Source: a virus
DNA length: 64,000 nt
Virus record (IMG/VR): IMGVR_UViG_3300047666_001259
Span: 32,001 to 96,000 of that record
Direction: 5' to 3' (one strand)
The translations under genes were made by a program, and so were the position numbers. The notes below the pieces were generated by a model, which saw only the letters and a program-made list of their open reading frames with translations, was not told the origin of the DNA and made no database searches. Position 1 is the stretch's first letter, and every line of letters starts with the position of its first letter. Shown here in pieces: positions 384 through 53,152 of the stretch.

Positions 384-435
384 CGGTTTGTGTATGTACC
401 GTTTGAGGTACGAAAATGGAATATAAACAGTGTTA
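381..435 (+). repeat. attC-like hairpin A1
   Basis: TAAC GGTTTGTGTAT GTACC GTTTGA GGTAC GAAAATGGA ATATAAAC AGT GTTA. Confidence 0.7.
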
Positions 436-676
436 TAAAATTAAATTGATTATGGGAATGTTTGATACAGTAATAGTTCCGTGTCCAGAATGTGGAACAA
501 AAGAAGAATTTCAGAGCAAAAGTGGTGAATGTTTTTTACAAGAAGTAGAATTAAAAGACTGTCCAAGTGATATATTGTATGACGTGAATAGACACTCGCC
601 ATACACTTGTTGTGATTGCGGTACTTTATTCGAGGTAGACACAAAATCTAAAGAAAGTACTAAAGTAGTGTTGTAG
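416..676 (+). CDS. small Zn-ribbon protein (cassette cargo); start may be Met at 452
   Basis: CPECG and CCDCG motifs. Confidence 0.7.
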   Translation: MEYKQCYKIKLIMGMFDTVIVPCPECGTKEEFQSKSGECFLQEVELKDCPSDILYDVNRHSPYTCCDCGTLFEVDTKSKESTKVVL

Positions 677-677
677 A

Positions 678-904
678 TAACGATGTACCTTTTTAAAAGC
701 AAAACGGGCGAGTGTAAAATTTGAAAATTATGGATGATAAAACGATAGCTTATTATTTACAGCACAAAGTAGAAGTAAAAGAGAATAGCTTAAAACCTAT
801 GGATAAACGTCATAAAATACCTAAGCGCATAAAGAAGGAAATAAAAGAACTAAAAGCAATGATTGAACACTTGACGGAATAATTTTTTGTTTTTATACAT
901 TGTT
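678..904 (+). repeat. attC-like hairpin A2 with an ORF inside the loop
   Basis: Left arm AACGATGTAC..TAAAAGCAAAA pairs with right arm TTTTGTTTTTATACATTGTT. Confidence 0.65.
730..882 (+). CDS. 50 aa basic hypothetical protein inside the loop of site A2 (not in the ORF track)
   Basis: ATG 730 to TAA 880-882, MDDKTIAYYLQHKVEVKENSLKPMDKRHKIPKRIKKEIKELKAMIEHLTE, AT-rich leader. Confidence 0.6.
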   Translation: MDDKTIAYYLQHKVEVKENSLKPMDKRHKIPKRIKKEIKELKAMIEHLTE

Positions 905-935
905 GTGCTTAACGAAGTGGTGTTTTAATGAAGCA

Positions 936-1007
936 CAACGGTTGCAAATATGAGAAGTAAATCTTTTCATTAAAAAATAGACAAAGTAAGATTTATTTCT
1001 TATATTT
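936..1007 (+). repeat. attC-like hairpin A3 (GTT core degenerate)
   Basis: AAATATGAGAAGTAAATCTT pairs with AAGATTTATTTCTTATATTT. Confidence 0.65.
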
Positions 1008-1038
1008 AGTATCAAAAATTTTATACAAATTAAAAAAT

Positions 1039-1260
1039 ATGGAAAATACATTTGAACCAAGAAAATCCATCTCCGAAAGATATAGTTTGGAGAATATGTC
1101 TAAACAAAGAGGAATGTCTATTGATGACTATAAGTTAGAAATAGACAAACAACTCAAAATGAAACAGGATATTATTGATAAACAACTATCAAAAGGATGG
1201 ACACAGGAACAATCTGAAACTCACGCTATGAGGTGTTTGTATATTGATGGATTTTCTTGA
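1039..1260 (+). CDS. hypothetical protein (cassette cargo)
   Basis: 73 aa ORF flanked by a perfect 15 bp inverted repeat at 1010-1024 / 1285-1299. Confidence 0.7.
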   Translation: MENTFEPRKSISERYSLENMSKQRGMSIDDYKLEIDKQLKMKQDIIDKQLSKGWTQEQSETHAMRCLYIDGFS

Positions 1261-1306
1261 CCGACATTCAAAGATTAAGAACTCATAAAATTTTTGATAT
1301 TGAATA

Positions 1307-1429
1307 TAACGCTGAGTATATGAAACGTAAATTTTAAACAGACAAAATGAATAAAACAGGATATTATATATTAGGAATACTGAGCGGTTTGACCCTATAC
1401 AAACTAATTTATGTTTTATATACATTGTT
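1307..1429 (+). repeat. attC-like hairpin A4
   Basis: GTATATGAAACGTAAATT pairs with AATTTATGTTTTATATAC (two G.T pairs), then ATT GTT. Confidence 0.75.
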
Positions 1430-1586
1430 GTTGTTAGTTGATTTTACGCCTTTATACCCTTACTTAATAGATATAAACTATTATTGCGAAAAGTATACAA
1501 CTAAAAATATTGCTGAAATAGGTGCAATACTTTTGATAGTAATACCAATAGCAATATTTGTGATTAAAGAGCGCAGACTTAAGTAA
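1347..1586 (+). CDS. small two-TM membrane protein; starts in the A4 loop and reads through the right arm
   Basis: Two hydrophobic stretches; YVLYTLLL is encoded by the hairpin right arm. Confidence 0.65.
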   Translation: MNKTGYYILGILSGLTLYKLIYVLYTLLLLVDFTPLYPYLIDINYYCEKYTTKNIAEIGAILLIVIPIAIFVIKERRLK

Positions 1587-1599
1587 AATCTATTAACTA

Positions 1600-1651
1600 C
1601 AATGACTACTGTATGTGGCGTAGCTTTTCGCTATGACATATAAAGTTTGTT
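1600..1651 (+). repeat. attC-like hairpin A5
   Basis: CAAT..TGTATGTGGCGTAGC TTTTC GCTATGACATATA..GTT. Confidence 0.7.
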
Positions 1652-1688
1652 AGCATTAGTACGGATTAATAACTAAAAACTTAATAAG

Positions 1689-1880
1689 ATGACAAAAAGA
1701 GAAAGATTAAAAGAGTGGATTAAAACTCTAAACGAAGAACAAAAAGATACTGTGATACTTGAACTTACAGACTTTGCAATAGATGCCGAGTATGTTGGTT
1801 TTTATGATACTACGAAAGTACCATATTATGATTGTACTGGAGAAAATCTAGATGGAACTGAAAGCGATGATGAAGATTAG
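1689..1880 (+). CDS. hypothetical acidic protein (cassette cargo)
   Basis: Bounded by GTTAGCATTAGTAC (1649) and GTATTACTGCTAAC (1880-1893). Confidence 0.7.
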   Translation: MTKRERLKEWIKTLNEEQKDTVILELTDFAIDAEYVGFYDTTKVPYYDCTGENLDGTESDDED

Positions 1881-1931
1881 TATTACTGCTAACGTATAGT
1901 AATATGATTAGTGCGGATTAATAACAAGAAA

Positions 1932-2099
1932 ATGGCAAAGACACGAGAACAAAAAAGAATTGAAAATGCGGATAAAGTTTGTAGAGAACTTAGATACCAA
2001 ATAGTAGAATATGGACTAATAGGCGATTGGGATGCAATTAATAAGCATTTTAATTCTTGGATGAATAATGCTAAAAAATCTAAATACGAAAGACCTTAG
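1932..2099 (+). CDS. hypothetical protein (cassette cargo; likely ATG 1932)
   Basis: ORF track 1911..2099; the GTG at 1911 lies in the hairpin arm. Confidence 0.65.
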   Translation: MAKTREQKRIENADKVCRELRYQIVEYGLIGDWDAINKHFNSWMNNAKKSKYERP

Positions 2100-2136
2100 C
2101 ATTAGTACGGATTATTAACAGATAAATTATATAAAA

Positions 2137-2322
2137 ATGGAAGGAATAAAAGTAACATTAGTGCCAAATCAAGAAACAGACTACCAAGCGTTTAGATTTG
2201 ATGAATTAGGTATTACTTATTTTGAATGGTCAAAAATGAGTGAAGATGATAAAAGAATCTTGGTGTTAGAAAACATTATGGAAAATATATGCTCTCACGT
2301 TGACTCGATGGATGAGTATTAA
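2137..2322 (+). CDS. hypothetical protein (cassette cargo)
   Basis: Bounded by TTAGCATTAGTAC (2096) and GTATTAATGCTAAC (2316-2329). Confidence 0.7.
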   Translation: MEGIKVTLVPNQETDYQAFRFDELGITYFEWSKMSEDDKRILVLENIMENICSHVDSMDEY

Positions 2323-2325
2323 TGC

Positions 2326-2521
2326 TAACGGATATGGTTAAGGTTAGTTGCGGGTAGAATATTAATGAATTAAATAAACAAAAATGAAAGCAGATTTAGA
2401 ACAGTTGGAAAAAATGCAAGAAGACTTATTTAGGCAACAATGTGATTTAGATATACAGAAAGCAATGGTAAAACACTTTATAAAAAAGAAAGAAGACGAG
2501 CTATTAACTTTAACCGATGTT
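2326..2521 (+). repeat. attC-like hairpin A7 with long coding loop
   Basis: GGTTAAGGTTAGTTGC pairs with GCTATTAACTTTAACC, then GAT GTT. Confidence 0.75.
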
Positions 2522-2584
2522 GTGGACAGTTTGCCAAGTGATAGACCTAAATTAAGACCATCTTACATTGGCGATAAAGACTAA
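2384..2584 (+). CDS. coiled-coil hypothetical protein starting in the A7 loop
   Basis: ELLTLTDVV is encoded by the right arm and GTT core. Confidence 0.7.
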   Translation: MKADLEQLEKMQEDLFRQQCDLDIQKAMVKHFIKKKEDELLTLTDVVDSLPSDRPKLRPSYIGDKD

Positions 2585-2615
2585 AAAAAATAAAACAATA
2601 CGGTGTAATTGTCTA

Positions 2616-2685
2616 CAACACCGAAATAAACTCTTGTGCGTAGCATAGAGTTTATTGAATGTTAAAGTGCGTTTTTATGCACTTT
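2616..2685 (+). repeat. terminal attC-like hairpin A8 plus short tail hairpin
   Basis: AATAAACTCT..TGC GTA GCA..AGAGTTTATT GAAT GTT AAAGTGCGTTTTTATGCACTTT; homologous to 52133-52197. Confidence 0.75.
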
Positions 2686-48168: not shown

Positions 48169-48512
48169 TAATCCTATATAAGAATAGTAATAAAGGACGT
48201 GGAACTGCCGCTAATGAAATAATGAGTGGTTATGCGTTGTATAATAACAACTGTGCTGAACCCACTTGGTTACTTACTGAGTTTAATTATTTAAAAGAAA
48301 CAACAAATATTAAATTCAAAAAATACTTTGGATATAAATTAACTGAAGAAGAAAGCGTTGTGTTTTGCTATGAAAATGATTGATATAATGAGTGAGACAC
48401 TAAGGAGTGCAAAGGGAGTGCCTAATGGCTCTTTTCGGTGTGCCGATGACGAATGTATGTTATCCCCCTCTCATTCATTATATCTTTTGTTATTGTGCGT
48501 TTTAATACACTC

Positions 48513-48714
48513 TAACGGTTTGTGTATGGGTATTTTTTGCCCGATTTAATAATAACTAAAATTTAATAAAATGACTGAGGAAATTAAGCAATTACTGATT
48601 GACTGTGCAAACTTTATCCAACCGTATGATGATGGAGGAAACGAAGCTGAAAGGTTAATGATAAGACTTGATGAAGCACTAAAGCAAGGGTAATAATTAC
48701 CTATACACGTTGTT
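48513..48714 (+). repeat. attC-like hairpin B2 with an ORF in the loop
   Basis: GTGTATGGGTATTTTTTGCCC pairs with GGGTAATAATTACCTATACAC. Confidence 0.75.
48571..48693 (+). CDS. 40 aa ORF inside the B2 loop (not in the ORF track)
   Basis: MTEEIKQLLIDCANFIQPYDDGGNEAERLMIRLDEALKQG with the shared AATAACTAAA leader. Confidence 0.55.
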   Translation: MTEEIKQLLIDCANFIQPYDDGGNEAERLMIRLDEALKQG

Positions 48715-48736
48715 GTATGTCTTTTTTAATTGCATA

Positions 48737-48790
48737 CAATATGTTGTATGTGCCGTTATGAGGCACGAGCAATGAATTTTAAACCTTGTT
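48737..48790 (+). repeat. attC-like hairpin B3, homolog of A1
   Basis: GTATGTGCCGTTATGAGGCACGA..AATG..TAAAC..TGTT. Confidence 0.65.
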
Positions 48791-48805
48791 AGGCACTTTA
48801 CGATA

Positions 48806-48997
48806 ATGGATAAGATGGAATCATTCACGTACAAAGGCTTCAAGGTAGACCCAACTTGTTATAACTATGGTTTTGAATGTATAGTTCAAGACGAAGCACC
48901 AAAGCTATTTGGTATGTCTATAAATGGCATCAAGTTAGAGATTGACGAATGGATTAAAAAAGAAAAAAGGGAAGGGGAAAACTTAGAGTACCTATAA
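48806..48997 (+). CDS. hypothetical protein (cassette cargo)
   Basis: ORF track. Confidence 0.65.
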   Translation: MDKMESFTYKGFKVDPTCYNYGFECIVQDEAPKLFGMSINGIKLEIDEWIKKEKREGENLEYL

Positions 48998-49014
48998 AAT
49001 TAAAGACAAATAAA

Positions 49015-49320
49015 ATGAACGAATCAAAAGAAATGATGGGGGAGCAATGTTTAACCGAAAAACAAACATTAAAAACCTCTTTAGAAAAATTAAACCAAAG
49101 AAACTATGAACTGAATGATATTGCGTCATTAAGTTCTCTATTAGTAGAAAAATTCTTTAACCCTAATAACGAGCCTAGAGATAATCAAGGTTCTGATAGA
49201 GAAAAAGAAAGACAGCCTGATAATATAGTTGAAGTTTTTGACGAGGTATCTAAAAAGCTTGGTAATAACATAAACACTATTGGGAGCAATTTGCAAAGAA
49301 TATTGGCAATAATGGAATAA
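49015..49320 (+). CDS. coiled-coil hypothetical protein (cassette cargo)
   Basis: ORF track. Confidence 0.65.
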   Translation: MNESKEMMGEQCLTEKQTLKTSLEKLNQRNYELNDIASLSSLLVEKFFNPNNEPRDNQGSDREKERQPDNIVEVFDEVSKKLGNNINTIGSNLQRILAIME

Positions 49321-49392
49321 CCAACTTGTGAGCGTGGGCTTTTTCTTATTAGCAGAATGTTTGATTTGAAACTGAATTTAGCCCATGACTTA

Positions 49393-49479
49393 CAACGTTT
49401 AGGCTAAGGTTAGTAGCCTTTAATACTAACCATTAAATTATAACAAGACCTATTGAGGCTATTAATTTTAGCCATTGTT
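49393..49479 (+). repeat. attC-like hairpin B5
   Basis: GGCTAAGGTTAGTAGCCT pairs with AGGCTATTAATTTTAGCC; related to the A7 arms. Confidence 0.75.
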
Positions 49480-49493
49480 AGGCATAGTTTATT

Positions 49494-49697
49494 ATGGAAG
49501 CAAGAGAATTTTACGACAAAAGAATTAACGAAGAACCGACTATTGGAAGCGTACAGTTAATGGAAGAATATGCAAAACATATTATTGAAATTAACTTTTG
49601 TGATGGCTCTCCTATTGAATTTAACAAACTATCGGTTGAGCAACTAAAAACAATTCACAAAAATATAAATAAGTGTGTCGATTGGGTTAACTCCTAA
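49494..49697 (+). CDS. hypothetical protein (cassette cargo)
   Basis: Bounded by GTTAGGCATAGTT and AATTGTGCCTAAC. Confidence 0.7.
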   Translation: MEAREFYDKRINEEPTIGSVQLMEEYAKHIIEINFCDGSPIEFNKLSVEQLKTIHKNINKCVDWVNS

Positions 49698-49704
49698 TTG
49701 TGCC

Positions 49705-49828
49705 TAACGGAATTGTATAAGGTTTCGTTACGTAGATTAAATAATAAATTAACAAATAAAAACTGAATTGTGATTAAGCAAGAAAATAATAAACAAACAG
49801 AAATTAGTAATGAACTTTATACGGTGTT
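49705..49828 (+). repeat. attC-like hairpin B6
   Basis: GTATAAGGTTTCGTTAC pairs with GTAATGAACTTTATAC, one extra base in the left arm. Confidence 0.75.
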
Positions 49829-50108
49829 ATGCCCCGTTAATTTGTTTAGGTACTTCCTTCGCAAGCAATACAAAGACGTTGAAATTAGTAACGAAGAATG
49901 CGATGAATTAAACACAGACTTTCACAAACACTTAACAAGCCTAAAGTTAAGCGAAAAGCAAAAGGAAAACATAATGCCTAAAAGTGAAATAGATGTAATA
50001 ATGAACTCTGAACACCCATTAAGAATGGATGGATTTAGCCCTGCTTATGTTTTTCATTTTGGTGAATATATAAAAAGTAGAGCAGTCGCATTGGCTAATG
50101 GGGCATAG
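49770..50108 (+). CDS. hypothetical protein starting in the B6 loop
   Basis: SNELYTVL is encoded by the right arm; ends TAATGGGGCATAG, complementary to GTTATGCCCCGTTA. Confidence 0.65.
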   Translation: MIKQENNKQTEISNELYTVLCPVNLFRYFLRKQYKDVEISNEECDELNTDFHKHLTSLKLSEKQKENIMPKSEIDVIMNSEHPLRMDGFSPAYVFHFGEYIKSRAVALANGA

Positions 50109-50113
50109 CTGTT

Positions 50114-50302
50114 GTTATCGGCAGTTTAATTGAAAAATATCAAAAAGTTCGCAATAAAAATCAGGAGCAATTTATGACTCAATTTGGAAATGAATATTCT
50201 ATATCAAACGCACTTTTATTGGAAGAAAGAGATTGTTGCGACAGATTTATAGAAGATTTGAAAAAACTGCCGATAACGGCTGATGATAAACAATCGTTTT
50301 AA
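50114..50302 (+). pseudogene. headless cassette ORF left after collapse of its upstream hairpin
   Basis: Open frame VIGSLIEKYQKVRNK...KLPITADDKQSF* beginning exactly at the GTT core. Confidence 0.45.
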
Positions 50303-50320
50303 TGTTGTTTATCATTTGTT
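50274..50320 (+). repeat. attC-like hairpin B8 (shortest intact site)
   Basis: TAAC GGCTG ATGATAAACAA TCGTTTTAATG TTGTTTATCAT TT GTT. Confidence 0.8.
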
Positions 50321-50433
50321 ATGTGTAGGTGTGGTTAATTAAGGTAGAATGTTTAATCGGAGAACTGAACAAAAATTTTAAAAGAAAAAGAAGGGTTGAT
50401 TTTAAAATTTGAATATTTATATATAAACATATT

Positions 50434-50952
50434 ATGAGTGAAGATATGAGAAAAATGATTGATAAAGCTAAGAACTTTAATCAGTTTTTAAATGAAAACG
50501 AAAATTTAATGAACCAAATATTAGATAAAATTAGTTCTAATGGTATAACATCATTAAATACTGGTGAATTAAAATATTTGAAACAATATTCTTCTGGACA
50601 AATAAATCCAGATTTAGAAAAAGCACTTCAAGTTGAAAGTGGTTTTGTTTTTGTTTCAAAAAATATACCACTGTTAAGATTTGAATATAATTTCACCGAA
50701 GAATCAGATGAAGAATATCAAAAAATGCTACACAAAGGAACCGTTTATATTGACGGATTAGAATTTGATGGAGATATTTATTGTGATGAAAATGGAAAAT
50801 ATGAAGCATTCGATTTTCACACATATCAATCCAATGATGATGGCACAACTGACCAAATAGAAGATTTAGCTTACTATGATGATGAGTTAGATGGTAAGAT
50901 AGAAAAATTCTTTAAAAATGAAGTTTCTCCTTACTTAACCTATTCATTTTAA
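50434..50952 (+). CDS. acidic protein with a phage-late-type N-terminus (cassette cargo)
   Basis: MSEDMRKMIDKAKNFNQFLNENEN; TATTTAT at 50414-50420. Confidence 0.7.
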   Translation: MSEDMRKMIDKAKNFNQFLNENENLMNQILDKISSNGITSLNTGELKYLKQYSSGQINPDLEKALQVESGFVFVSKNIPLLRFEYNFTEESDEEYQKMLHKGTVYIDGLEFDGDIYCDENGKYEAFDFHTYQSNDDGTTDQIEDLAYYDDELDGKIEKFFKNEVSPYLTYSF

Positions 50953-51001
50953 AAAGTTGGCGGGATTTTTCTTTTAAAATTTTCAACCGAAATGTTGATT
51001 A

Positions 51002-51041
51002 GAACGATAAACGGAACGATAAACGGAACGATAAACGGAAC
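51002..51041 (+). repeat. 12 bp tandem repeat GAACGATAAACG x3.3
   Basis: Direct reading of the sequence. Confidence 0.9.
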
Positions 51042-51050
51042 ACTTACACA

Positions 51051-51140
51051 TAACGTTAAGTATATGGTTTTGTAAGCCATAGCAGAAATTTACAAATTAA
51101 AAACGAATATTAATTAGGCTTATAAACTATATACATTGTT
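51051..51140 (+). repeat. attC-like hairpin B9
   Basis: GTATATGGTTTTGTAAGCC pairs with GGCTTATAAACTATATAC. Confidence 0.8.
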
Positions 51141-51178
51141 GTGTGTAATACGGGATTTAAGCCACAAACTTTATAAAA

Positions 51179-51361
51179 ATGCAAAGAAAGATAAATTGCA
51201 AACACAACAACATGGGTGCTTGGTGTACCAACAAGGATATAAAACGCTCATTGTTTGGTATAGGTGCAAGATGTTGTACTGAATTTAATGACAAAAAATG
51301 TGATTTAAAAGAAATTAGAACAAGGAAAGGCAAGCCGCCACCAAGACCAACGAAAGCGTAG
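51179..51361 (+). CDS. small Cys-rich basic protein (cassette cargo)
   Basis: Bounded by GTTGTGTGTAATAC and GTATTACACACAAT. Confidence 0.7.
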   Translation: MQRKINCKHNNMGAWCTNKDIKRSLFGIGARCCTEFNDKKCDLKEIRTRKGKPPPRPTKA

Positions 51362-51370
51362 TATTACACA

Positions 51371-51588
51371 CAATGTTATGGATATGGATTGATTTTTAAC
51401 GGATAAATAAACACAGAATTATGAATATAGACGAAGAAAATAAAGCAAAAGAATTTTACATTAAGAGTGCTATAAATGGCATTCATACACCACGAACTAA
51501 TATGGTTGAGATAAACTATTTAGATATGCTAAAGCTAATGCACTCTTACAGCCAAGAGGTAGTTAAAAATTTATCTATATCTGGTGTT
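51371..51588 (+). repeat. attC-like hairpin B10 with coding loop
   Basis: GGATATGGATTGATTTTTAAC pairs with GTTAAAAATTTATCTATATCT. Confidence 0.75.
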
Positions 51589-51759
51589 AAGAACTGGGTG
51601 GCGGTTAAAGACTCTATGCCCGAAAATTGCGACCAAGTTTTTGTAAAGTATGAAAATGGCAAATATGGAATAAATGAATGGTGGAAAAGTGATGATTGCT
51701 GGAAATACCAATTTGATAATATGATAGTAAAAGAATGGTGTAAGCCACCTTGTTCTTAA
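51421..51759 (+). CDS. DUF551-like protein starting in the B10 loop
   Basis: NWVAVKDSMPE...VFV...V.EW.KPP. Confidence 0.7.
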   Translation: MNIDEENKAKEFYIKSAINGIHTPRTNMVEINYLDMLKLMHSYSQEVVKNLSISGVKNWVAVKDSMPENCDQVFVKYENGKYGINEWWKSDDCWKYQFDNMIVKEWCKPPCS

Positions 51760-51819
51760 CGTCTCGTATATGGTGTCGGAATTTTATTTTTCTTAAAATT
51801 ATGCATTATATACTTTGTT
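51757..51819 (+). repeat. attC-like hairpin B11
   Basis: GTATATGGTGTCGGAATTT pairs with AAATTATGCATTATATAC. Confidence 0.7.
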
Positions 51820-51853
51820 ACCAATAGTACGGATTTTAATAACTAAATTTAAT

Positions 51854-52135
51854 ATGAAAACAATAACTTCAATTATAGCACTAGCTAAGGCATTTTTTAT
51901 ATTGCTTGTTAGGCGTAGTGCTTCTTTACCGCAAGTCTTAATGACTAAAAATGATTTTGAATTAGTTTTAAACCACTATCTACTAAATTATTGGGATATA
52001 AAACATGAAAATATTGATGGATTTGAACATTTAACAATTCAAAATCATTTACCATTTTATAAAAAAAGGTTTGAAGAAATGAAAAAAGTAATTGATGAAC
52101 GCAAGATTATTCGTGTGATGGTGCATTACACCTAA
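51854..52135 (+). CDS. hypothetical protein (cassette cargo; likely ATG 51854)
   Basis: Crosses an orphan right arm and GTT at 51890-51910; ends GCATTACACCTAA, complementary to GTTAGGCGTAGTGC. Confidence 0.65.
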   Translation: MKTITSIIALAKAFFILLVRRSASLPQVLMTKNDFELVLNHYLLNYWDIKHENIDGFEHLTIQNHLPFYKKRFEEMKKVIDERKIIRVMVHYT

Positions 52136-52197
52136 CACTGGAATAGATTGCGTTTCAATGCAACTCTATGGAATGTTAAAGCACGTTTTAATGTGCT
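52133..52197 (+). repeat. terminal attC-like hairpin B13 plus tail hairpin
   Basis: TAACACTGGAATAGATTGCG..TGCAACTCTATGGAATGTTAAAGCACGTTTTAATGTGCT. Confidence 0.75.
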
Positions 52198-52215: not shown

Positions 52216-52500
52216 ATGAAAGATTTGAAACCAAATTTTAAATCAGTTAGAGAACTCTGTGAAGAGTTCGGAGTTCAGGTAGAGCTTTCTTTCGGGAAGA
52301 AATTTAGAGCTATCGTGAGCAATGATGAAGAAATTCATGTGTTACAAAACGGATGGGATAAAAATCTAATTGAAGAAATCTCAGCCTTATCTGCTGAGAT
52401 GTGGAAAAGAGAAGAAAAAAGATATAAGGAGATTTCTGATAGGCTTAAAAACTTAGACCCTGAAATCTTTCCAGACAACTTATTTGAAGATAAAGAATAA
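52216..52500 (+). CDS. hypothetical protein
   Basis: ORF track. Confidence 0.6.
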   Translation: MKDLKPNFKSVRELCEEFGVQVELSFGKKFRAIVSNDEEIHVLQNGWDKNLIEEISALSAEMWKREEKRYKEISDRLKNLDPEIFPDNLFEDKE

Positions 52501-52700
52501 TGGTAAGAAGGAGCGATATTTGGTTTTTTGGAGTAATTGCATTTGCGATGTTCCTAATAATATATGATGTAGTTACGCAGACATTTCAACCTTGGCATAA
52601 CTACTGGATGATTCTCCTGATACCTTATGTTCCTATTAAGATTTTTTATTCAAAATCAAAGCTGTTCAGATGGCTTAATACAGATATATGGAAAAGTTAA
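52500..52700 (+). CDS. small membrane protein
   Basis: Two hydrophobic segments. Confidence 0.6.
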   Translation: MVRRSDIWFFGVIAFAMFLIIYDVVTQTFQPWHNYWMILLIPYVPIKIFYSKSKLFRWLNTDIWKS

Positions 52701-53152
52701 AAGCAGCAATCGAACTTAAGAGTAAGTATAACCAAATGGAGCTTGAAGAAGTGGCTGAAGAGTTCTCTAGATTCTCTGGTCAAAAAATTCCTCAGAAAGC
52801 TATTGAGGATTTTAGATTTGTTGGTCTAAACAATGTAGACTTTTTAACATCTGATTGGCTAAACCGATACAGCTTGAAAAATCTTTTTCAATACGAGGTT
52901 AAGAAAGAAAAGAATAAAATACCAAACCCAGAAGATGGTGAATTCCTAATCATGAGAATCATGCACACTTCTGATAAACAATTCCAAAAAGGAATGAATG
53001 TTTATGTGCTAAATAACGAAACTGAAGGAAACTGGGTTTCCCGACATTGTGATACAGGTTATTTAACAATTCCAAAAAAGTTTAGGCATATGGAGGTTAA
53101 AGTCTTTGAATATAACGATGACAATTGGTATTTAACAGGACTTAAATCTTGA
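52688..53152 (+). CDS. hypothetical protein
   Basis: ORF track. Confidence 0.6.
   Translation: MEKLKAAIELKSKYNQMELEEVAEEFSRFSGQKIPQKAIEDFRFVGLNNVDFLTSDWLNRYSLKNLFQYEVKKEKNKIPNPEDGEFLIMRIMHTSDKQFQKGMNVYVLNNETEGNWVSRHCDTGYLTIPKKFRHMEVKVFEYNDDNWYLTGLKS

Follow-up and report, generated by a model that had tools for sequence, protein, structure and literature searches.

A gene-less end unit with an attC-like site borders arrays of small genes in marine phages

Arrays of small genes in marine phages end in a unit that has no gene of its own and that combines a folded site of the attC kind with a short hairpin. Comparison of related contigs places cassette gain and loss precisely at the AAC that forms the 5' edge of this unit; the unit thereby appears as the border between hypervariable DNA upstream and a conserved backbone. 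We propose that the unit is a gene-less anchor cassette, i.e. a distinct class of attC-like site joined to an empty body, which would occupy the attI-equivalent end while the array grows upstream of it; we put the probability of this reading at roughly 0.5. Clusters of attC sites in phages (CALINs) have already been published (PMC9892861); the end unit and the base-precise junction are new.

Results

The window, i.e. the whole 64,000-nucleotide stretch of DNA that was analysed, comprises bases 32,001-96,000 of the 105,908-bp IMG/VR virus record IMGVR_UViG_3300047666_001259, a contig with 34.8% G+C and a CheckV completeness of 31%. Runs of small ORFs on the plus strand occupy positions 198-2584 and about 48,200-52,135, and the remaining window is typical phage DNA. 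An Rfam gathering scan of the window returned no family, a tRNA scan of the window returned none, and PHROGs assigned no family to ten flanking proteins. DNA of this phage is present in sea-ice and marine metagenomes. Since one of its inter-gene modules is 83% identical to Polaribacter phage P12002S, its host is likely to belong to the Flavobacteriia, and the same is probably true for the hosts of the marine phages that carry the end unit. A module of array 1 (926-1007) is 95% identical to part of LR756500, a 462-kb uncultured phage record in which the flanking genes of the module find no match; the long gene-free part of array 2 holds GAACGATAAACG three times in tandem (51002-51041).

The first-pass annotation had described one 27-nt core that closes both arrays, and this is confirmed, with the strings exactly where it placed them: GAATGTTAAAG-TG-CGTTTTTATG-CA-CT at 2657-2683 (site A) and GAATGTTAAAG-CA-CGTTTTAATG-TG-CT at 52171-52197 (site B). 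With up to 2 mismatches allowed, the 27-nt pattern matches the window twice, compared with 0.00 times in 100 dinucleotide-preserving shuffles, and the two sites hold the only copies of the core in the whole 105,908-bp contig. The exchange of TG/CA for CA/TG does retain the stem, here called H2 (AAAGTGC/GCACTTT at site A, AAAGCAC/GTGCT at site B). AAC-AC(C/T)G(A/G)-AATA opens both sites (at 2617 and 52134), and the earlier statement that internal sites mostly begin with AACG also stands, as 17 of the 25 penultimate sites of other arrays do so. What the first reading missed is a second hairpin, H1, upstream of the noted core, whose arms are wholly different between the two sites with pairing retained in both. 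Sites A and B fold into an outer AAC..GTT pairing with H1 and H2, at z values of -4.8 and -3.6, respectively, relative to shuffles (plus strand; Table 1).

The surroundings of the two sites differ. Site A is located between the last gene of array 1 and a convergent 290-aa gene, the stop codon of which (2686-2688) directly abuts H2. Downstream of site B, a tightly packed block of plus-strand genes starts after 18 nt, with the next gene beginning at 52216; for the gene at 52688-53152 in this part of the window, our search for relatives found none. At site B, T52133 and the AA of the core provide the TAA stop of ORF 51854-52135. A last-cassette stop built in this manner, from the base before the core and the AA of AAC, is found at 52133-52135 and in contig L029 (6011-6013), and a T precedes the AAC in most family members. 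From the family alignment, the AAC at 2617-2619 is probably both the crossover point and the 5' edge of the end unit.

Table 1 Features of the two arrays and end units (window coordinates)
Feature	Positions	Strand	Details
Array 1: small plus-strand ORFs between AAC..GTT hairpins	384..2616	+	With the end unit, an insertion relative to a close relative
Site A, right arm b' of last-cassette stem	2608..2616	+	Pairs with 2522-2530, just 3' of GTT 2519-2521; inverted repeat I14
Site A, AAC core	2617..2619	+	Family homology breaks at this triplet; column invariant in alignment A1
Site A, spacer ACCGA, H1 and spacer GAAT	2620..2660	+	H1 arms 2625-2634 and 2647-2656, loop 2635-2646; fold, covariation
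Site A, GTT core	2661..2663	+	Pairs with AAC 2617-2619; AU/AU/CG invariant in 57/57
Site A, H2	2664..2685	+	Arms 2664-2670 and 2679-2685; loop GTTTTTAT 2671-2678
Array 2: small plus-strand ORFs, same type of inter-gene hairpins	48169..52133	+	Ends at site B
Site B, right arm b' of last cassette	52125..52133	+	Pairs with 51911-51919, after GTT 51908-51910
Site B, AAC core	52134..52136	+	Family alignment
Site B, spacer ACTGG, H1 and spacer GGAAT	52137..52174	+	H1 arms 52142-52151 and 52160-52169, one bulged C, loop GTTTCAAT 52152-52159; fold, covariation
Site B, GTT core	52175..52177	+	Covariation analysis
Site B, H2	52178..52197	+	Arms 52178-52184 and 52193-52197; loop GTTTTAAT 52185-52192

Relatives were collected with the pattern AACAYYGRAR, gap, GAATGTT, gap, CGTTTYWATG, which matched 26 IMG/VR contigs, 63 metagenome contigs and one of 185,579 prokaryote species genomes. 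The end-unit family is therefore almost restricted to phage contigs. The first three loose pattern scans of IMG/VR gave mostly chance matches, which were filtered by hairpin checks; the first of these scans contained one true relative, L029. The family comprises 59 distinct sequences from marine and sea-ice phage contigs, built in the order AAC, 5-nt spacer, H1, GAAT, GTT and H2 with the loop GTTTYAAT. A covariance model made from the 59 sequences matched sites A and B only in the 64-kb window, and each of five complete phage genomes of 33-50 kb (95-100% complete) contains one canonical unit, located at an array border. The model also detected a second, divergent unit in G005, a complete 50-kb phage (42197-42280; L424 2197-2280, minus strand), in which internal TATA-type arms are followed by a strong hairpin; it looks like an intermediate between the end-unit and internal site classes. 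A blastn search with site A and a consensus-like copy against 50,697 GenBank phage records produced no real match. In assemblies the end unit forms a repeat node with several different flanks, identical copies are found in unrelated flanks, and three relatives of site A do not extend to site B. The suggestion that the element would recur in relatives, and always as the 3'-most unit, holds in part. The unit marks a fixed 3' boundary of the arrays; on the other side, contigs L134 and L136 carry two end units each, one cassette apart, and the array of Polaribacter phage P12002S consists of internal-type sites with no end unit. In this phage, internal-type AAC..GTT sites separate some 13 genes, two for methyltransferases and one for an HNH endonuclease among them (L447 4411-9719), and these sites far outnumber the published attC sites of its sister phage P12002L, of which there are two.

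As two sequences alone cannot prove covariation, the family alignment was used, for which 57 distinct relatives were aligned with MAFFT, a structure-blind procedure, and the structure was supplied by us. Both H1 and H2 covary strongly in the family. In total, 81% of the cells pair, compared with 69% in shuffles and 39-47% in slid controls, and changes on both sides are seen in 151 cells, compared with 44 in shuffles (reached in 0 of 500). The AAC/GTT pairs are invariant (57/57 sequences). At the two flagged positions of H2, next to the loop, the pairs are CG30/AU14/GC12 and GC32/CG16. The H2 loop itself is GTTTTAAT in 50 copies, GTTTCAAT in 7 and GTTTTTAT in 1, the mean MFE of H2 in the family is -7.1 kcal/mol, and two extra pairs can form inside the 'loop'. 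The coding strand, which carries the 5'-AAC, has the lower MFE in 58/58 copies, and on this strand the H1 arms hold 22 G.T compared with 2 A.C. The two spacers of the unit are unequal, at 5 nt and 4 nt, and a bulged base is present in most copies. In four contigs (L135, L346, L353 and L421), a strong GC hairpin (GGGTATAAC..GTTATACCC) lies 10-20 nt downstream of H2, with an A-run on one side and the convergent operon on the other, and is probably the real terminator of that operon.

The position of the unit at the edge of variable DNA was evident in four groups of related phages, in which 2-3 kb downstream are conserved, the DNA upstream is unrelated, and the break falls exactly at the AAC of the unit. 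In another lineage, the unit immediately follows a conserved 205-aa gene in five contigs from different samples; in four further contigs, one 354-bp cassette, consisting of a hairpin site and an 82-aa gene, is inserted at that AAC, with the repeat TAAC at both junctions. The proposal that arrays grow on the upstream side of the unit agrees with two pairs of arrays and less well with a third. L367 consists of the two cassettes of L395 plus 1,070 nt adjoining the unit, and in the pair L345/L353 the extra cassette DNA likewise adjoins the unit; in the pair L379/L389 the proximal cassette is common and the differences are further out, so turnover is not confined to the unit. The whole of array 1 can be absent together with its unit. 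In L342, a close relative in which the neighbouring gene product is 94% identical to that of the window, both are missing, and the ORF 198-383 homologue runs into the convergent gene, the two overlapping in their stop codons (GATTAACC); an X7 metagenome contig likewise joins 167 to 2702. The absence from L342 indicates that the unit is not part of the backbone and could be a founder. Around the units of the family, AAC..GTT hairpins numbered 63 upstream, compared with about 12 in shuffled sequence, and 25 downstream, compared with about 10. These counts were made at stricter thresholds, since a looser detector (at least 9 pairs) gave 144 hairpins genome-wide compared with about 140 in shuffles; simple motif maps of internal sites over the contig were likewise not specific.

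The end unit has the AAC..GTT hairpin plan of the internal sites and is distinct from them in sequence. In 38 of 54 contexts, compared with 3 and 6 in controls, the last 9 nt upstream of the terminal AAC are complementary to the bases that follow an upstream GTT, and this b/b' stem encloses the last gene of the array. The penultimate sites belong to the other class, AAC-G..-(A/T)GTATA(T)G ... TATAC(A)-TT-GTT, so that the boxes AYYGA..AATAA/TTATT..GAAT of the end unit face G..GTATATG/TATACA..TT in the internal sites. In all true matches the site half of the end unit is followed by an H2-like, gene-less hairpin and never by a gene. Loaded cassette bodies start with ..CGTT(T)AA and end with ..TAATTG, and the H2 loop CGTTTTAATG therefore looks like the two ends of a body fused together; this loop is also present in other, ordinary empty hairpins inside arrays. 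An AAC after H2, which would be expected if the unit were an inserted empty cassette, is not enriched in the family (32%, compared with a background of 31%), and the right junction of site A, TTAGC where a relative has TTAAC, is suggestive only.

A recombinase was sought in the phages themselves. None of the families PF00589, PF00239 and PF01797 occurs in the five unit-bearing genomes (95-100% complete), and the contig of the window also lacks PF00589. All that these five genomes share is ERF, DUF3127 and one large protein; as the genomes are related to each other, the shared genes do not amount to an association with the unit. In all five, the ERF annealing protein adjoins DUF3127 (e.g. L422 4659-5518 and L429 13990-15166). 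In the L029 lineage, the unit comes directly after a gene pair (L029 4456-5656) which, by its position, may encode putative recombination functions.

Discussion

The reading of the unit as a founder or attI-like acceptor, put forward in the first-pass annotation, is the best fit to the comparisons of related contigs. It agrees with the 3' boundary, with the breakpoint at the AAC, with the existence of alleles holding no cassette or one, and with the extra cassettes that adjoin the unit; what has to be given up is a likeness to attI in structure. We propose that the end unit has two parts, namely an attC-like recombination site in folded form, which consists of AAC, a 5-nt spacer, variable arms, GAAT and GTT, and H2, which would be a minimal cassette body without a gene. 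Crossover would take place in the AAC, with the coding strand folded. On the opposite strand, this would correspond to G|TT, the canonical cut at an attC 3' end, and the coding strand would be the folded 'bottom' strand. The end unit would then be the first site of the array, in the position of attI, with the genes pointing towards it. A cassette circle recombining at a resident AAC would land only upstream of that site and, from this geometry, the first unit to arrive would stay last and the array would grow on the upstream side of the unit. The covariation of H2 may be explained by a need for its two flanks to stay complementary, and H2 with its T-run could perhaps also damp read-through transcription to some degree. 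The recombinase would be a host enzyme or a new one, as no tyrosine or serine recombinase and no Y1 HUH protein was found to be encoded by the five complete phages. Against the anchor reading stand this missing recombinase, the lack of AAC enrichment after H2, the double units of L134 and L136, the P12002S array with no unit, the outer differences between L379 and L389, and P12002L_attC1, which yielded no verified recombinants with IntI1 (PMC9892861).

The likeness to integrons extends over several levels. As in an integron attC site, the AAC and GTT cores of the unit form the foot of an imperfect hairpin with variable arms and loop and a spacer that may be unpaired, and folding is specific to the 5'-AAC strand. 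As in integrons, the cassette ends are complementary across the unit and cassette-sized indels occur at the core. The position is that of attI, which is a distinct site at one end of the array. However, attI is located beside intI, whereas no intI adjoins the unit or is present in the five complete genomes; attI is a double-stranded site with integrase-binding repeats, whereas the unit is a covarying hairpin with an empty body; an attC site belongs to a gene-carrying cassette, whereas the body of the unit is always the gene-less H2; and integron genes read away from attI, whereas here the genes read towards the attI-equivalent end. A study of virulent phages, among them Polaribacter phage P12002L, reported attC clusters that have no integrase; it gives no more than two or three attC sites for each phage and describes no end unit (Qi et al. 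2023, PMC9892861). The predicted P12002L_attC1 site gave no verified IntI1 recombinants (PMC9892861); its primer sequence has the architecture described here, with the CGTTTTAATG loop, and can also be likened to the internal sites. For P12002L_attC2, IntI1 did bring about recombination, at G|TT as read on the non-coding strand of the array (PMC9892861), which is the same orientation as we infer for the end unit. This second site corresponds, in reverse complement, to the final intergenic region of the P12002S array and is built unlike attC1.

With respect to shuffling, the nearest phage analogues are the promoter-early stem-loops (PeSL), which are mobile regulatory cassettes of T4-type phages (PMC2839356, PMC4122927). 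There, too, repeated stem-loops flank small, variable early genes in the hyperplastic regions of lytic phages and mark the borders of indels between closely related phages. The PeSL are, however, near-identical, promoter-bearing repeats that recombine by homology, whereas the arrays described here have cassette-specific flanks, 3-8 nt in common at the junctions and one end unit per array; an excess of sigma-70-like promoters was not seen. In a rival reading, the unit acts mainly as RNA: the polycistronic early transcript of the array would end in it, H2 and its U-run would be an intrinsic terminator, H1 would block 3' exonucleases or be a processing stem, and the breakpoints would arise from recombination between phages at a conserved module, as with PeSL. 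We consider this unlikely, even though the better folding of the coding strand in every copy fits an RNA role equally well. The same reading could draw on the stability of H2 with its extra pairs in the loop, on a median T count of 5 in the 9 nt that follow the stem, on a GTTTT run common even to groups with unrelated downstream DNA, and on the location of site A between convergent genes, and the ERF protein of the five complete phages could recombine at repeats. With its hairpin and T-rich run behind a series of co-directional genes, the unit does resemble an intrinsic terminator, a role for which the first-pass annotation had allowed, but the stem of H2 is short (3-7 pairs and 2 inside the loop), the sequence of its 8-nt loop is conserved, sites A and B both fail a simple terminator scan, and two groups have a further strong GC hairpin, with its own T-run, 10-20 nt downstream of H2. 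Termination has a weak case at the two sites of the window and a moderate one in the family. Moreover, in group 3 and at site B the next gene begins 17-30 nt after H2, which leaves little room for a promoter, so that read-through seems necessary. The invariant AAC/GTT cores, a breakpoint of such precision with a repeat of only 4 nt, and the b/b' complementarity are all left unexplained by an RNA role.

The unit could also be simply the oldest of the ordinary attC-like sites, with no acceptor role, in which case one successful type of cassette would have spread among phages. Its AAC..GTT hairpin follows the same plan as the internal sites, it can stand one cassette from the end (L134 and L136), arrays without it exist (P12002S), and turnover takes place at inner positions as well (L379/L389). 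We nevertheless judge this quite improbable, because the spacer and arm boxes are distinct from the internal class, the site is always tied to a gene-less body, it occurs once per complete genome, at the array border, and identical copies lie in unrelated flanks. Far less credible is a binding site for a regulatory protein, i.e. an operator or nut/put-like element controlling the downstream module. Conserved loops on variable stems, with two hairpins per site and two sites in the contig, would suit such a role, but the downstream modules are wholly different between groups, the genes downstream run towards the unit at site A and in groups 1 and 2, no conserved partner protein adjoins the unit, and the CGTTTTAATG loop is not exclusive to it, being also found in ordinary empty hairpins inside arrays. 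An antitermination signal of the nut/put type was rejected on position, i.e. the 3' end of an array with convergent neighbours.

Beyond the anchor cassette as such, it is possible, though doubtful, that the arrays form an integrase-independent system, in which a mobile anchor would land at a TAAC of the backbone, seed an array there and serve as the preferred entry point, with recombination carried out by a host enzyme or by a kind of recombinase so far not connected with integrons. Small early genes that change quickly are kept in banks by lytic phages, and many of these genes probably act in host takeover or against host defence; little is understood of how such banks are assembled. A defined end unit whose junction is precise to the base provides a handle on this assembly. 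It allows the borders of arrays in metagenomes to be called automatically, and it offers a target for an integration assay and a bait for the missing recombinase. The single published observation of attC-like sites in P12002L is thereby extended to a widespread, structured system.
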